From a virus (lineage: Duplodnaviria > Heunggongvirae > Uroviricota > Caudoviricetes): a stretch of DNA of 15,851 nt. The DNA lies in IMG/VR virus record IMGVR_UViG_2684622669_000012, positions 1-15,851 of that record, one strand, 5' to 3'. Position 1 is the first letter of the stretch. Each line of letters opens with the position of its first letter. The notes below the pieces were generated by a model. The model had not been told where the DNA came from. It made no database searches and saw only the letters and a list, made by a program, of their open reading frames with translations. This document shows, one piece after another, positions 8,022 through 14,365 of the stretch. Position numbers and translations under genes: made by a program.

Positions 8022-8634
8022 AGGTGCACTATAATTCCACCCGTTCTGGTTTTCAATAGCTACATTCAACATTTTCTCTACCTTTCATCACCTGAGTGAA
8101 CTTTGTTGATGCGGTGCCTGGTGCCTCCAGGTGACGTTAACCAGTTAACAATTAACGCCGGATGACTCACCCATAACACTCATGTTTTTAACTGTTCCGC
8201 GTGCGCTTAGCCGCATTCACCGCATCACAAAATTCACTTTAAAAAGGGCGGCAGAGCAGTCACGGAGTAAAACTGATACCGCCAAACGCCACCAGAAAAT
8301 TGATAACAGAGGGCGTTGTAGCGGGGTTGTCACTTAAGCGTATGGTCAACCTGACAACCCGGTGTCCTCAACGGGGAAGGAATAACCCAGCCATACTTAC
8401 CGCCGCGCCATTTCGCGGAGTGCCACAACCGGAAGCGCACGGTCGAATTAAATTTAACGACACCGTACAGAGAGACCAATTTCGCCGTGCGCTTTCGCGT
8501 TATGCCCTGGCTTTTCAGGGATATATCCTTTCAGTAAACTGTCAGTACCGGATTCTTATCCGTGTCCGGCGCACGACCACACGTGACAGCGTGTTGGTCT
8601 CCATTTTTAACCCAGAACCTCAATGGAGGATAAA

Positions 8635-9815: not shown

Positions 9816-10205
9816 TTATTTTTGTCGTGTTATTGGGTCGACGTATTCTGAGTAAAATTCAGTCAGTTTTTGGAGTCGCATTTGAAAAGCTGCCAGCATA
9901 TTTCTACGTTCTACAGGTGGCAGGTTTCTGTAAACATCAAGCAGGGCCTTCTCGTCATCATCAAGCGCCTCTCTATTTGTCTCTTCTTTCCCTGTCAGTA
10001 GCCAAGAAAGGGAAACGTTTGTGGCTTCTGCAATTTTGGCTGCGGAATCTTTACTGATTGTTCCTCTTTTTTTCCATGCGTTGACTGATGAACGACCTAC
10101 ACCAGCGATACGCGCTAAATCTGAACCACTTAAATGATGCTGTTGAGAGATCGTATCTAACCTTTCTGCTAGCGGGGTGTCGTATTGCTTTTTTCTCATG
10201 TCCAT
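9816..10205 (-). CDS. Prophage repressor, Cro/C1-type HTH (XRE family), short form without S24 peptidase domain
   Basis: 129 aa; HTH at LSGSDLARIAGVGRSSVNAWKKRG; divergent from the cro-like gene; far too short to include a LexA-like autocleavage domain. Confidence 0.8.
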   Translation of the reverse strand: MDMRKKQYDTPLAERLDTISQQHHLSGSDLARIAGVGRSSVNAWKKRGTISKDSAAKIAEATNVSLSWLLTGKEETNREALDDDEKALLDVYRNLPPVERRNMLAAFQMRLQKLTEFYSEYVDPITRQK

Positions 10206-10308: not shown

Positions 10309-10584
10309 ATGACAGCATTGGACAAAGCAATAAAGATTGCTGGTGGTATTCGTCCGCTAGGGCGTGCAATAGGGGCTTGGCCATCTCAAATACACAAATG
10401 GGCAAATGAATACAATGGTCGAGTGCCGACGGGAGAACGGGTTCGTCAAATTTATATTGCAACTGGGGTTACTCCTCATGAATTGCGACCAGATTTATAC
10501 CCGAATCCAACTGACGGGTTGCCTGCTGGAGATAAGGCTAACACACCAAATACACCGGAGTTGATTCATGAAAATCAAGCATGA
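10309..10584 (+). CDS. ydaS: Cro-like HTH regulator, YdaS family
   Basis: 91 aa; GGAGG RBS; contains the YdaS-type motif (ERVRQIYIATGVTPHELRPDLYP) as recalled from Rac YdaS; first gene rightward of the operator region. Confidence 0.75.
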   Translation: MTALDKAIKIAGGIRPLGRAIGAWPSQIHKWANEYNGRVPTGERVRQIYIATGVTPHELRPDLYPNPTDGLPAGDKANTPNTPELIHENQA

Positions 10585-10993
10585 ACACATCCGCATGGCG
10601 ATGAATGCCTGGGCGCGTCCTGATGGCGAAAAAGTTCCAGCAGCTGGAATAACCCAGGCTTATTTTGAGTTGGGTATGACGTTTCCTGAACTGTATGACG
10701 AAAGCCATCCGGAAGCTCTGGCTCGCAATACTCAGAAAATTTTCCGCTGGGTGGAGAAAGATACTCCTGATGCGGTTAAAAAAATTCAGGCGCTGTTACC
10801 AGCGATCGAAAAGGCAATGCCACCTTTGCTGGTGGCCAGAATGCGCAGCCACAGTTCAGCTTATTTTCGGGAGCTGGTGGAGACGCGGGAGCGACTGGTG
10901 AGAGACGCTGATGATTTTGTCGCAGTGGCAATCGCCGGTTTCAATCAGATGAACCGTGGTGGCCCGGCAGGAAATGCTGTGGCAGTACATTGA
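10568..10993 (+). CDS. ydaT: YdaT-like protein (CII-position regulator/toxin family)
   Basis: 141 aa; starts MKIKHEHI as Rac YdaT does (memory); overlaps the ydaS-like gene by 17 nt. Confidence 0.75.
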   Translation: MKIKHEHIRMAMNAWARPDGEKVPAAGITQAYFELGMTFPELYDESHPEALARNTQKIFRWVEKDTPDAVKKIQALLPAIEKAMPPLLVARMRSHSSAYFRELVETRERLVRDADDFVAVAIAGFNQMNRGGPAGNAVAVH

Positions 10994-11064
10994 CTGACAA
11001 TAGCCATATCGAATCGCTTCCGGCAACTCGTGAGTAAAAAGATTCGGTATCAGAAGAGGTGAGT

Positions 11065-12135
11065 ATGGCTAACGCCTGGCTCAGATTATGGCATGACATG
11101 CCAAATGACCCTAAGTGGCGAACAATTGCCAGGGTGTCAGGGCAGCCAATTGCAACAGTGATGGCAGTGTATATCCACCTCCTGGTGAGTGCGTCACGAA
11201 ATGTCACGCGAGGTCACATTGATGTCACGACAGAAGATTTGGCAAGTGCGCTCGACGTGACAGAAGAGGTAATTGATTCAATTTTGCAGACGATGCAGGG
11301 GCGGGTACTTGATGGTGATTTAATCACTGGATGGGAAAAACGCCAGGTGCTTAAAGAGGACAACGGCAATATTTCGCAAACCGCAAAATCTCCTGCAGAG
11401 CGCAAGAGGGCGCAGCGAGAGAGGGAAAGAAAGCGGGAACAAAATGGCGATTGTCACGGCGCGTCACGAAATGTCACGCACATGTCACGACGAGTCACGA
11501 CAGATAAAGATACAGATAAAGATACAGATCAAGAAGATCAAAACACTATGGTCCATGGCGTAAAAAACGCCACGAACCAGGCAGGGGATGTTCAGACCGT
11601 CAATCCTGGTCAGCCAGCAGGCACGACACCGGAAGCCGATTCAGCGTATGCGCTGAAAGCCGATTCGGGCGCTGTGCAGCAGGTGATGACCGGAAGGCCG
11701 GAGCAATCACACCAACTGCAGCAGCCTGAAGCCGATTCCGCCATTCAGCGGGAAGCCGATCGGGTAGTCCCGGAAAACACCGGGCAGCCTGTGGGACGAG
11801 TGGATTATCCGGATGTGTTCGAACAGGTCTGGCGGGAGTACCCGTTGCGTGCCGGAGCAAACCCGAAGAAATCCGCTTTCAGTGCCTGGAAGGCCAGATT
11901 ACGCGAGGGGGTGCCACCAGAGGCCATGCTGGATGGCGTGAGGCGTTACGCAAGATATCTGGCGGCTACCGGGAAAACGGGAACGGAATTTGTTCAGCGA
12001 GCGACGACCTTTTTTGGACCGGACCGGAATTTTGAAAACCCCTGGTTGCTCCCGGTAAGCGGCACGAACAACCAGCGTTGTGTGAATCATATTTCTGAAC
12101 CGGATACCGAAATTCCGCCGGGCTTCAGGGGGTAA
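11065..12135 (+). CDS. Replication initiation / replisome organizer protein (O-like) with internal origin iterons
   Basis: ATG at 11065 after GAGGTG (ORF track uses GTG at 11059). Two GTCACG iteron arrays inside the gene encode repeated ASRNVT..VTT peptide segments, followed by an A/T-rich tandem repeat; position is immediately after the cII-like gene. Confidence 0.7.
   Translation: MANAWLRLWHDMPNDPKWRTIARVSGQPIATVMAVYIHLLVSASRNVTRGHIDVTTEDLASALDVTEEVIDSILQTMQGRVLDGDLITGWEKRQVLKEDNGNISQTAKSPAERKRAQRERERKREQNGDCHGASRNVTHMSRRVTTDKDTDKDTDQEDQNTMVHGVKNATNQAGDVQTVNPGQPAGTTPEADSAYALKADSGAVQQVMTGRPEQSHQLQQPEADSAIQREADRVVPENTGQPVGRVDYPDVFEQVWREYPLRAGANPKKSAFSAWKARLREGVPPEAMLDGVRRYARYLAATGKTGTEFVQRATTFFGPDRNFENPWLLPVSGTNNQRCVNHISEPDTEIPPGFRG
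11193..11229. repeat. Iteron array 1: four GTCAC(G) repeats at ~10-11 bp phasing
   Basis: GTCACG at 11193, 11203, 11224 and GTCAC at 11213. Confidence 0.6.
11463..11526. repeat. Iteron array 2 (four GTCACG repeats) plus adjacent A/T-rich 12-bp tandem repeat; candidate ori
   Basis: GTCACG at 11463, 11473, 11484, 11494; first 19 nt identical to array 1 (GCGTCACGAAATGTCACGC). Followed by GATAAAGATACA x2 (11503-11526). Confidence 0.6.
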
Positions 12136-12175
12136 GTGTTTATTTCAGGTCATGAGGTAATTTTCAGGAGGACTT

Positions 12176-12598
12176 GTGGCAAAAGTATTTACACAGGAAG
12201 AGCGAGAAAAAATTAAAGGGCAGGTTGTTGAACTCGTACGCCAGAGTGGGCGTGAGACGTTACGACAACTGGAAGCTAAAACTGGGGCAACAAGATATCT
12301 GATGAGCGTTCTCGCAAGAGAGCTGGTTGCCAGCGGCGATGTATACAACTCTGGTTACGGGTTATTCCCGTCTGAACAGGCGCGTAAGGACTGGCAAAAT
12401 GCCCGTAAAAAGCTCTCAAGGGCAAAGCTGAAGAAACCATCTGCGGTTGATCTGGACCTTATCTGGTCATTACCAGACGGAGAAATACGTCGCTACGACA
12501 GGCGCCTGAATATAATCTGTCGCGAGTGCCGGAAGAGCGAAGTTATGCAGCGAGTGCTGGCGTTTTATCAGGGAAATTATCAGGGGGGCTGTGAGTAA
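12176..12598 (+). CDS. Hypothetical phage protein (140 aa)
   Basis: GTG start with GGAGG 5 nt upstream; occupies the slot after the replication initiator but has no Walker A motif, so it is not a DnaC/P-type helicase loader. Confidence 0.7.
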   Translation: MAKVFTQEEREKIKGQVVELVRQSGRETLRQLEAKTGATRYLMSVLARELVASGDVYNSGYGLFPSEQARKDWQNARKKLSRAKLKKPSAVDLDLIWSLPDGEIRRYDRRLNIICRECRKSEVMQRVLAFYQGNYQGGCE

Positions 12599-13998: not shown

Positions 13999-14209
13999 TT
14001 TCATATTGGCGAGGTAACGGGAGTTAAGTAGAATGGCTGCGGGTGCTTGAGGCTATCTGTCTCAGGCATGAACACCAAAGGCAGATAGAGAAAAGCCCCA
14101 GTTAACATTCGGCGTCCTGCAAGACGCTTAACATTAATCTGAGGCCCAATCTATGTCTCACAAATGTAGGTTAGCCTCTTACGTGCCGAAAGGCAAGGAG
14201 AAGCAGGCT

Positions 14210-14365
14210 ATGAAGCAGCAAAAGGCGATGTTAATCGCCCTGATCGTCATCTGTTTAACCGTCATAGTGACGGCACTGGTAACGAGGAAAGACCTCTGCG
14301 AGGTACGAATCCGAACCGGCCAGACGGAGGTCGCTGTCTTCACAGTTTACGAACCTGAGGAGTAA
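14210..14365 (+). CDS. hokD: Hok/Gef-family type I toxin (membrane peptide)
   Basis: MKQQKAMLIALIVICLTVIVTALVTRKDLCEVRIRTGQTEVAVFTVYEPEE: near-identical to HokD/RelF as I recall it (one A/V difference). AAGGAG RBS; the ORF-track entry adds an in-frame 19-codon upstream extension. Confidence 0.9.
   Translation: MKQQKAMLIALIVICLTVIVTALVTRKDLCEVRIRTGQTEVAVFTVYEPEE

Follow-up and report, generated by a model that had tools for sequence, protein, structure and literature searches.

Two separated clusters of one repeat, one of them adjoining the unwinding region, are known from phage P4 (ori/crr), from SaPI ori, and from the iteron sets of P1 and F, the second cluster being a cis enhancer (P4 crr) or a control locus (P1 incA). 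These clusters are intergenic or flank rep. [quoted passage not shown] The product of gene 38, G38P, also binds a second repeat cluster, oriR (PMC6316719).

The locus described here resides in a window of 15,851 nucleotides, this being the whole stretch of DNA analyzed. Its segment 11192-11579 is probably the replication origin of a lambdoid prophage, embedded in its own initiator gene, with one of its two repeat arrays (array 1) representing an accessory cluster. As in lambda, repeats and an A/T-rich region are placed within the initiator gene, namely in the interdomain linker, which in lambda O separates the N-terminal DNA-binding domain from the C-terminal domain contacting the helicase loader. 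The gene order upstream (repressor, cro, cII, and then the initiator) is likewise that of lambda, as is the behavior of the N-domain and the iterons as a specificity cassette. In contrast, lambda-type iterons are ~18 bp long, feature dyad symmetry, and are bound by dimers, whereas asymmetric cores of 6-7 bp recur here every 10-11 bp. Furthermore, a second array and an inverted site are located inside the region coding for the DNA-binding domain, and no P-like loader gene follows the initiator. Nor is the initiator homologous to lambda O: the Pfam search returned no Phage_rep_O match at E values up to 10.

By weak similarity (PF09681/TIGR01714, below threshold), SPP1 gene 38 is the closest relative, and it shares with this locus, here at the sequence level, the direct repeats and the AT-rich tract in the organiser gene. 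However, the second cluster of SPP1 is ~13 kb away, compared to ~225 bp within the same gene here; a loader and a helicase (gp39 and gp40) are specified by SPP1 itself, neither of which is present in the window; and the hosts here are proteobacteria. Unlike the clusters of P4, SaPI, P1, and F, whose initiator families are unrelated to this initiator, both arrays lie within coding sequence here, array 1 in the part specifying a folded domain, and each base therefore serves the protein as well as a putative binding site.

The Initiator Gene and Its Neighborhood

The initiator gene (11065-12135, + strand, 356 aa) was recognized as an open reading frame matching phrog_3729 ‘replication initiation protein’ at 2e-257, and its NCBI names are ‘phage replisome organizer’ and ‘DnaT-like ssDNA-binding domain-containing protein’. 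At its N-terminus, the encoded protein has a winged-helix domain; a basic helix and a disordered linker connect this domain to a C-terminal module that ends in a DnaT-like tail. The winged-helix domain (aa 4-95, encoded at 11074-11349 on the + strand) is the candidate iteron-binding domain and is presumed to bind the iterons; it was predicted confidently by AF2, and its fold resembles the N-terminal domain of DnaD. PF09681 matched the initiator with 16.5 bits (E 0.009), below the cut-off of 23.3, with residues 5-123 aligned to positions 1-119 of the 121 in the profile, and TIGR01714 reached a score of 15.4, below its cut-off of 49.8, with the profile aligned over its full length. As deduced from these comparisons, the initiator would be, at best, a distant relative of the PF09681/TIGR01714 replisome organisers. 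The other weak Pfam match was HTH_Crp_2. The predicted ‘recognition’ helix H3 of the domain (EEVIDSILQTM) is acidic.

Just upstream of array 2, the gene encodes the basic helix (aa 110-126, ERKRAQRERERKREQ, 11392-11442, + strand; AF2 helix H110-126). Within it, R113 never varies and R118 hardly varies among 45 aligned sequences, and R113, R118, E119, and R120 are all invariant in an alignment of five sequences. This helix may bind DNA. Residues 128-162 were predicted by AF2 with pLDDT values below 50, and array 2 and the A/T-rich tract together encode aa 130-160, inside this low-pLDDT linker after the winged-helix domain. The C-terminal module (aa 158-356, 11536-12135, + strand), which is exchangeable between initiators, is presumed to recruit the host helicase-loading machinery. 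Its last 24 residues (12061-12132, ..VNHISEPDTEIPPGFRG) resemble the C-terminus of DnaT (NF002770, E 0.0015; PDB 6aep/2ru8/9zbt), the likeness to DnaT being limited to this tail; the rest of the module matched no Pfam family. A full DnaT DNA-binding domain (PF17948 at 1.3e-16) was found in an Aeromonas homologue. In DnaT itself (primosomal protein I of E. coli), the C-terminal domain assembles into filaments on ssDNA, and the protein is considered to recruit DnaB/DnaC (PMC13377028).

Downstream of the initiator, DUF977/LygF, two genes of unknown function, and hok/sok were identified, and no helicase or loader gene was present downstream of the initiator in the window. Relatives with a helicase gene include Ralstonia phage Hennie (dnaB), phi1 (a DnaB-like gene), and pAEv1818 (helicase). 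Identity of the locus with oriJ/YdaU of the Rac prophage was considered and rejected: the Rac records in the phage collection matched only the lygF part, with no match to the N-domain protein. The origin oriJ is known to be active (PMC3945230) and belongs to a different initiator.

Iteron Arrays and the Adjoining A/T-Rich Tract

Ten GTCAC(G) sites are present in the initiator gene (11065-12135), namely four direct copies, one inverted copy, and five further direct copies. Array 1 (11193-11229, + strand) consists of four direct iterons at 11193, 11203, 11213, and 11224, corresponding to spacings of 10, 10, and 11 bp, in agreement with the four GTCAC(G) copies at ~10-11 bp described in the first-pass annotation; its third copy reads GTCACA and thus differs from GTCACG. 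It encodes aa 43-55, comprising the end of helix 1, the loop, and strand 1 of the winged helix. Array 2 (11453-11499, + strand), with array 1 lying ~225 bp upstream, encodes aa 130-145 within the disordered linker. The phased GTCACG repeats proposed for this array were recovered, but in five copies instead of four, the first being located at 11453 and the others at 11463, 11473, 11484, and 11494 (spacings of 10, 10, 11, and 10 bp). Array 2 is presumed to be the core initiator-binding site of the candidate origin. The conserved iteron core, GTCACG(A/C), is asymmetric, 6-7 bp long, and recurs with a period of 10-11 bp. The identical 19-nt start that the arrays had been reported to share (GCGTCACGAAATGTCACGC) was seen at 11191 and 11461, and the repeats do encode repeated peptide segments, as ASRNVTRGHIDVTT, ASRNVTHMSRRVTT, and DKDTDKDTD are present in the translation. 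The single inverted iteron, TGTCACG on the - strand at 11256-11262, was absent from the first-pass annotation; it encodes D64-V65-T66 in the turn preceding helix 3.

Array 2 is followed by an A/T-rich and purine-rich tract of the form (GATAMA)n (11500-11545, + strand; GC content 0.28), which is made up of ACAGATAAAGAT in tandem and then CAAGAAGATCAAAAC. A tandem repeat had been annotated at this place with two copies; its presence was confirmed, whereas the copy number determined with TRF was 2.9 (11500-11534). The lowest duplex stability of any 40-mer in the gene is that of the tract (dG -44.7 vs. -58.8 +/- 3.8), which reaches the 99.6th percentile of the window for duplex instability and contains GATC sites at 11527 and 11536. 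Across the family, a (GATAMA)n or GA-rich tract follows array 2 in 71 loci, whatever the GC content of the host, and these tracts are rich in AT (63% vs. 44%) and in purines (70% vs. 53%; P ~3e-13). Composition and predicted stability make the tract a presumed candidate for the DNA unwinding element.

An imperfect palindrome, TGGTCCATGGCGT-AAAAA-ACGCCACGAACCA (11549-11579), adjoins the tract and folds as DNA with -8.7 kcal/mol (z -2.8). The corresponding palindrome of Shigella phage 75/02 Stx features a compensatory change (GGCGA...TCGCC), and hairpins are enriched downstream of the tract across the family, so that the palindrome is possibly a structural element of the origin. DnaA boxes often accompany the iterons of such origins but are not required. 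The DnaA box TTATNCACA, with up to one mismatch allowed, was found at no site between 9323 and 12080, and the total count of DnaA boxes in the window is at chance level. An Rfam scan of 11000-12200 returned no match, and an RNA element is therefore not indicated.

Ten of the 35 GTCAC/GTGAC sites in the window fall within 306 nt (Poisson P ~9e-11). Phased runs of four and five copies were seen, compared to no run of at least four copies of any 5-mer in 300 dinucleotide-preserving shuffles of the window, and a phased-repeat scan of the entire window revealed no further phased array beyond the two. When the same peptides were recoded with codons drawn from the codon usage of the window itself, the observed motif count was reached in 1e-4 of the trials for array 1, and none of 20,000 trials reached it for array 2 (P < 5e-5). 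Furthermore, each of the two arrays has the motif in all three reading frames.

Codon choice was followed in 23 diverged homologues, a set that was picked by the peptide alone and hence represents an unbiased test. The motif codons of array 1 were GTC in 46/46 cases (19% elsewhere), ACG in 46/46 (24%), GGT in 23/23 (27%), CAC in 23/23 (51%), TCA in 22/23 (13%), and GCG in 21/23 (29%). At the inverted copy, the Val codon is GTG in 21 of the 22 loci having the peptide A[LF]DVT; the lone exception, GTT, belongs to a locus of the GTAAC class, where GTT forms an inverted GTAAC. In a homologue set picked by the motif, third-position entropy amounted to 0.21 bit in the motifs, compared to 1.26 in the spacers and 1.39 elsewhere. 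The motif is kept while the encoded peptide varies (ASRNVTRGHI, ASQGVTRGHA, and ASRNVTRGHV), and the extended 19-nt identity between the arrays is missing from the Aeromonas and Pseudomonas homologues. Selection acts on the repeats at the DNA level and irrespective of the protein; they are DNA elements rather than protein repeats.

Motif Classes and Conservation across the Family

To survey the motif classes, ~80 homologues from gamma-, beta-, and alpha-proteobacteria were compared, and 78 loci were classified. Five classes were distinguished (GTCACG, GTAACG, GTGACG, GCAACG, and CGAACGC), all having the ACG core in common. A phased array at the position of array 2 was found in 70 of the 78 loci. 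Array 1 is present in 54/78 and has fewer than three copies in the remaining 24/78, and is therefore not essential to the origin of the family. The first-pass annotation had regarded two arrays in one gene as less usual and had suggested a comparison with related prophages. In this comparison, the two-array layout recurred and array 2 proved to be near-universal; the layout is thus a trait conserved in the family and not peculiar to this prophage.

In all 50 loci having both arrays, the two belong to the same class (permutation maximum 31/50), and the inverted copy also co-varies with the class of the arrays. Close relatives may differ in class, as exemplified by L108 compared to L105/L109 (83% identical) and by L118 compared to L135 (85% identical), and mixed GTAACG/GTCACG arrays occur in some loci, e.g., in L105. 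Array 1 retains its exact positions and codons in hosts from the gamma- and beta-proteobacteria, between proteins that are 55-78% identical; in one locus (L086), array 1 is longer by 21 nt, which equals two iterons or seven codons. The 15 class switches counted by parsimony on a neighbor-joining tree, which was built on ~80 residues, are taken only to indicate that the classes are interspersed. For the helical phasing between the arrays (distances of 168-319 bp), the Rayleigh significance shifts with the assumed period and is confounded by relatedness. Because the sites and the domain are physically linked, concerted evolution could partly drive the co-variation.

The N-domain with its iterons is a swappable cassette. 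Both stay together in phages of E. coli, Aeromonas, Pseudomonas, and Ralstonia, and it is the C-domains and the neighboring genes that differ. Shigella phage 75/02 Stx has an initiator whose C-half shares 65% identity with the C-half here and whose N-half is unrelated; the N- and C-modules meet in a mosaic junction at the A/T tract.

Origin Model and Alternative Explanations

The proposal of the first-pass annotation that iterons and an A/T-rich region reside inside the initiator gene, comparable to the lambda origin, is supported by the selection acting on the repeats, the co-variation of the arrays, the location of the least stable tract, and the position in a disordered linker. In the mechanism proposed, the N-terminal DnaD-like winged-helix domain would bind the short asymmetric GTCACG iterons, and as these recur every 10-11 bp, the bound initiator monomers would be arranged head to tail along a single face of the helix. 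The five sites of array 2, located in the linker-coding stretch, would nucleate an initiator oligomer, which may in turn melt the adjoining (GATAMA)n A/T-rich tract, and the C-terminal module with its DnaT-like tail would bring in host helicase-loading proteins. Array 1, with its four direct and one inverted site, may serve as an accessory site bound by the same initiator, whether by making the nucleoprotein complex larger, by looping it, or by titrating or controlling the initiator.

We infer binding by the N-domain because the two arrays co-vary and because the N-domain and the iterons behave as a cassette; unwinding of the tract, firing of the origin, and the roles of array 1 and of the DnaT-like tail are likewise inferred. 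A literature search returned no description of the origin, binding, or unwinding of this family. In the plasmid collection, no independent replicon using the initiator was found, its occurrences being restricted to prophages on large plasmids or chromosomes and to circular phage genomes.

As an extension of this model, which we consider doubtful, the segment aa 45-55 (RNVTRGHIDVT) encoded by array 1 might be part of the iteron-reading surface, meaning that the site would encode its own reader. The leads are weak: the sole protein positions tracking the motif class are the array-encoded ones, and no clear class-tracking residue was found outside the array-encoded segments in class-sorted alignments or in near-identical pairs of different class. 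Arg, Asn, Thr, and His abound in the RNVTRGHIDVT loop, whereas the canonical recognition helix is acidic. Furthermore, L118 and L156, which are GTCACG loci without array 1, have His or Tyr after the invariant Arg-Gly, like the GTCAC class, and their closest CGAACGC relatives have Arg, Gln, or Thr at this position. If the array 1 segment reads the iteron, a change in the repeat would alter the site and the reader together, which would explain the concerted switch of arrays and specificity between close relatives.

Alternative explanations were weighed against the reading of the segment as an origin embedded in its own initiator gene. The repeats might have no function as DNA and simply reflect a peptide, ASRNVT..VTT, that is repetitive or was duplicated; in line with this, the arrays have the 19-nt start in common and, at a distance of 270 nt (90 codons), both encode ASRNVT in one and the same reading frame. 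A duplicated coding segment alone, as named in the first-pass annotation, is excluded by the reading of the motif in three frames and by the synonymous codons fixed to it in the 23 homologues; considering also the low third-position entropy of the motifs (0.21 bit vs. 1.26/1.39, in the motif-picked set), the peptides varying under a constant motif, the missing 19-nt identity in Aeromonas and Pseudomonas homologues, and the placement of array 2 in a disordered linker, a pure peptide image appears extremely improbable. The 19-nt identity in the window and the mixed GTAACG/GTCACG arrays, such as that in L105, would also be in line with concerted evolution (gene conversion or slippage) having produced the match between the arrays as a side effect, with array 1 not under selection. 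It is highly improbable that this accounts for the match, given that the 6-7 conserved bases per unit are too short for conversion over 225 bp, that the spacers are not homogenised, and that array 1 keeps exact positions and codons at 55-78% protein identity in gamma- and beta-proteobacterial hosts.

Other explanations accept the repeats as binding sites but assign them to another task or to another protein. The sites might be bound by the initiator mainly for control, i.e., autorepression or roadblock, handcuffing, or titration of the initiator of a superinfecting phage, with the origin being located elsewhere; in a milder form, array 1 would be purely regulatory and array 2 would be the origin. 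Array 1 and the inverted copy do lie inside a transcribed gene, array 1 is dispensable in 24/78 loci, up to four copies of the module per E. coli genome make cross-titration plausible, and plasmid iteron systems use additional clusters for control (P1 incA and F incC). Furthermore, rep-lambda phages are inhibited by plasmid-borne ori-lambda fragments (PMC3349717). Against this, the tract that follows array 2 in 71 loci is prone to unwinding, a property for which a site with a regulatory role alone would have no use, and the window holds no other phased-repeat origin candidate. In addition, the origins of SPP1 and lambda occupy the same position in the gene (PMC6316719, PMC6022878). Altogether, a mainly regulatory role is regarded as unlikely. 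That some different protein occupies the sites, whether a host factor or a phage regulator resembling CI, Cro, CII, or Rha, is very unlikely. In favor of such a protein, no class-specific residues were found in the helix of the N-domain expected to mediate recognition, and the ACG core occurs in all motif classes; yet the arrays travel with the N-domain despite unrelated repressors, cII-like genes, C-domains, and helicase genes, and a host factor would leave unexplained both the five classes in related hosts and the differing classes in proteins that are 83-85% identical.

Conclusions

The plan of the origin embedded in this initiator gene is very likely lambda/SPP1-like, the new feature being the additional repeat cluster inside the DNA-binding domain. 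The module was found in 2226 of 5426 complete E. coli genomes (~40%), with up to four per genome, and also in prophages of many gamma-, beta-, and alpha-proteobacteria; despite this wide spread, its origin is unannotated. The array in the folded domain represents natural dual-use DNA, specifying a protein fold and a site array at once, for which selection is measurable at synonymous sites. The junction at the tract locates the recombination point at which initiator modules are shuffled, and engineering could draw on the family for a compact set of origin/initiator pairs that are candidates for orthogonality. For the prophages themselves, the iterons and their five specificity classes would offer a rule predicting which of them share, and which escape, each other’s replication control.

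Genomic setting of the initiator gene

The window represents the end of a lambdoid/Rac-like prophage. It carries two tRNA genes (1902-1974, minus strand, and 2966-3052, plus strand), an integrase gene (3108-4133, minus strand) and an 813-aa ORF (4395-6836, minus strand) in the same place as exonuclease VIII in phage Tritos. Two short perfect tandem repeats, ACTTGGAATT x1.9 and CTTGGAATATTTT x2.1, were identified by the end of the integrase gene (3100-3137) and may be connected with the attachment site. Known small RNAs of the same prophage are located at 7833-8021 (minus strand), 8246-8297 (minus strand) and 14041-14365 (plus strand); those of the prophage comprise C4 antisense RNA and isrK, both overlapping an Ash/Rha gene, DicF next to it, and a sok/hok toxin-antitoxin pair. 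Genes for a CI-like repressor (9816-10205, minus strand), a Cro/YdaS-like protein (10309-10584) and a CII/YdaT-like protein (10568-10993) precede the initiator gene (11065-12135, plus strand), whose 356-aa product was assigned to PHROG 3729, 'replication initiation protein' (2e-257). A DUF977/LygF gene (12176-12598), two genes of unknown function and hok/sok follow, and no helicase or helicase-loader gene was found downstream of the initiator gene within the window.

Phased iterons within the initiator gene

The first-pass annotation had described two arrays of four GTCAC(G) repeats each. For array 1, GTCAC was located on the plus strand at 11193, 11203, 11213 and 11224, as described, except that the third copy reads GTCACA. 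Array 2 had been undercounted, as it starts at 11453 and comprises five copies (11453, 11463, 11473, 11484 and 11494), and a single minus-strand copy between the arrays (11257-11261) had been overlooked. The identical 19-nt start of both arrays (GCGTCACGAAATGTCACGC), the peptides encoded by them and the tandem repeat after array 2, a 12-nt unit ACAGATAAAGAT present x2.9 at 11500-11534, were all recovered. Ten of the 35 GTCAC/GTGAC sites of the window are packed into 306 nt (Poisson P about 9e-11), and 300 dinucleotide-preserving shuffles of the window yielded no 5-mer run of four at 10-11-nt spacing, compared to runs of four and five phased copies in the window itself. Three phased ATCTG copies at the same spacing were also observed at ~12439 (plus strand) inside the DUF977/LygF gene; this run is probably due to chance, runs of three occurring in about 4% of shuffled windows.

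The repeats were identified as elements of the DNA and not of the peptide. All three reading frames are used within each array (GCG-TCA-CGA, GTC-ACG and GGT-CAC). When the same peptides were recoded with random codons weighted by the codon usage of the window, the observed motif count was attained with a frequency of 1e-4 for array 1 and never in 20,000 trials for array 2. Furthermore, codons were analyzed in 23 distinct homologues, for which a match to the peptide AS..VT.GH..VT was the sole selection criterion; their sources include E. coli, Aeromonas, Pseudomonas, Serratia, Bordetella, Acidovorax and Chromobacterium. The same amino acids at other positions of these domains provided the baseline. 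Motif residues were encoded by GTC for Val (46/46; elsewhere 19%), ACG for Thr (46/46; 24%), GGT for Gly (23/23; 27%), CAC for His (23/23; 51%), TCA for Ser (22/23; 13%) and GCG for Ala (21/23; 29%). In the array spacers, third positions vary as much as in the remaining gene. At the inverted site, GTG encodes the Val of D-V-T in 21 of 22 loci; the only exception, GTT, occurs in a locus with the iteron GTAAC, where it yields an inverted GTAAC.

An AlphaFold2 model built from 45 sequences predicted a confident winged-helix N-terminal domain (mean pLDDT 86-97 per 10-residue block, residues 11-90) with helices at 29-45, 56-63 and 67-77, a strand at 51 and a wing at 78-87, as well as a basic helix (110-126) and a disordered segment (128-162). 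Mapped on this model, array 1 covers the codons of aa 43-55 (end of helix 1, loop and strand 1), the inverted site those of aa 64-66 in the turn before helix 3, and array 2 together with the A/T-rich tract those of the disordered linker. The canonical recognition helix is acidic.

Iteron classes and array composition among homologues

Protein-level searches detected the N-terminal domain in Aeromonas, Pseudomonas, Ralstonia and Microcystis phages and, with 37-99% identity, in 80 genomes representing gamma-, beta- and alpha-proteobacteria as well as a few others. The architecture recurs among these homologues and the motif varies between five iteron classes, GTCACG, GTAACG(C), GTGACGC, GCAACG(C) and CGAACGC, which have an ACG core in common. 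The comparison with relatives proposed earlier showed that the two-array layout recurs, and that the class is identical in both arrays in all 50 loci with at least three copies in each (27 GTCAC, 14 GAACG, 4 GTGAC, 3 GCAAC and 2 GTAAC); random re-pairing of the arrays gave a mean of 19 and a maximum of 31 matches. Classes are intermixed among close relatives. The homologous locus L108 (GTCACG) shares 83% identity with L105 and L109 (GTAACG) outside array-encoded residues and differs from them in both arrays, L118 (GTCACG) and L135 (CGAACGC) are 85% identical, and the N-terminal domain of L156 is 67-72% identical to those of L153, L158 and L151, with iterons differing from those of L153 and L158. 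Iteron class is tracked solely by residues that the arrays themselves encode. In GTCACG users, an invariant Arg-Gly is followed by His or Tyr, also at loci where array 1 does not overlap this residue; in CGAACGC relatives of these loci, the residue is Arg, Gln or Thr. It is a possible specificity determinant, as judged from very few independent cases.

Sixteen loci featured array 2 only, four (by this count) array 1 only, and eight neither, indicating that array 2 is near-universal and array 1 an addition in about two thirds of the members. In E. albertii (L086), array 1 has grown to six copies through a 21-nt insertion (two iterons, or seven codons; gene nt 129-181), 21 nt being the sole step size preserving both reading frame and helical phase. 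The extra aligned length in the O157:H7-type E. coli variants H75-H78 (84-86% identical) fits such an insertion, +21 nt being found in H75, H76 and H78. In loci L129 (Serratia) and L150 (Pantoea), the tract is missing along with both arrays; the linker position (gene nt ~320-375) is occupied by clusters of palindromic TACGTAGTA-type repeats, and the C-terminal part is different. This could reflect another type of site or another protein fusion.

A/T-rich tract and adjacent palindrome

In nearly every member, the last array 2 iteron is directly followed by (C/T)AGATAAAGATA..., that is (GATAMA)n, or by a GA-rich purine run, independent of iteron class and host GC content. The 50 nt after array 2 contain 63% A+T and 70% purines, compared to 44% and 53% in the N-terminal domain (n=71, Wilcoxon P about 3e-13). 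The tract of the window (11500-11545) represents the GC minimum of the gene (0.28), includes two GATC sites and holds the gene's least stable 40-mer (dG -44.7 vs -58.8 +/- 3.8), which ranks at the 99.6th percentile for the entire window.

An imperfect palindrome (11549-11579; core TGGCGT-AAAAA-ACGCCA) directly follows the tract and folds as DNA with -8.7 kcal/mol (z -2.8). Its counterpart in Shigella phage 75/02 Stx (L166) shows a compensatory change (GGCGA...TCGCC), and 19 of 70 loci contain a perfect stem of at least 7 bp in the 130 nt downstream of array 2, compared to 34 of 349 control windows. Many of the loci L087-L164 have unrelated stem sequences and a conserved C-T(G/A/T)AC-G loop. 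On this modest evidence the hairpin is a probable third element, which could be used in priming or helicase loading.

Modular exchange and the C-terminal part

The Aeromonas, Pseudomonas and Ralstonia proteins have the N-terminal domain and the sites in common and differ in C-terminal domains and neighbours: the Aeromonas homologue has a full DnaT DNA-binding domain and a helicase nearby, the Pseudomonas homologue another C-terminal domain and a DnaB-like gene nearby, and the Ralstonia homologue dnaB as neighbour. Conversely, the initiator of Shigella phage 75/02 Stx, followed by a DnaC-like loader, is 65% identical to that of the window from aa 158 and unrelated in its N-terminal half. Of 5426 complete E. 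coli genomes, 2226 contained a 596-nt query, with up to four occurrences each; partial matches ended at query positions 458-471 or started at 476, within the tract, which places a mosaic junction at window positions 11522-11540. The N-terminal domain, iterons and tract thus form an exchangeable specificity cassette with the tract as its junction. In databases, numerous family members are labelled 'partial', their contigs stopping near the linker, which probably results from several prophages per genome with a common N-terminal and differing C-terminal modules. Intact initiator ORFs are unannotated in Pseudomonas phage phi1 (L002, KT887557; 2501-3400) and in L167 (CP137943; ~3001-3900).

The last 24 residues (aa 333-356, window 12061-12132; ending in VNHISEPDTEIPPGFRG) resemble the extreme C-terminus of host DnaT (NF002770, E 0.0015; PDB 6aep, 2ru8 and 9zbt). 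In DnaT, the C-terminal domain assembles into filaments on ssDNA, and the protein is believed to bring in DnaB/DnaC (PMC13377028). The tail resemblance, together with these properties of DnaT and the full DnaT domain of the Aeromonas homologue, suggests that the initiator mimics DnaT and would recruit the host helicase through its tail, thereby reaching the host helicase-loading machinery.

Comparison with known origins

The earlier proposal of an origin made up of iterons and an A/T-rich region inside the replication gene thus gained strong comparative support, and the arrays and tract most probably constitute an intragenic iteron origin, in which array 1 may act as an enhancer or in looping, or in control or titration. 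In ori-lambda, gene O contains four iterons together with a 39-bp region of high AT content (PMC6022878). In SPP1, oriL is located in gene 38 and combines direct repeats with an AT-rich DUE; the replisome organiser binds it and, in addition, a second cluster at a distance (PMC6316719). The window follows the same plan as both. In contrast to these systems, its sites are short, asymmetric and of helical period, a second array and an inverted site lie within the region coding for a folded domain, its family uses five iteron classes, and a phage-encoded loader is absent from the window. Identity with the Rac oriJ module was rejected, as Rac records have lygF alone in common with the window and do not possess the N-terminal domain. 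A literature search retrieved no description of this origin.
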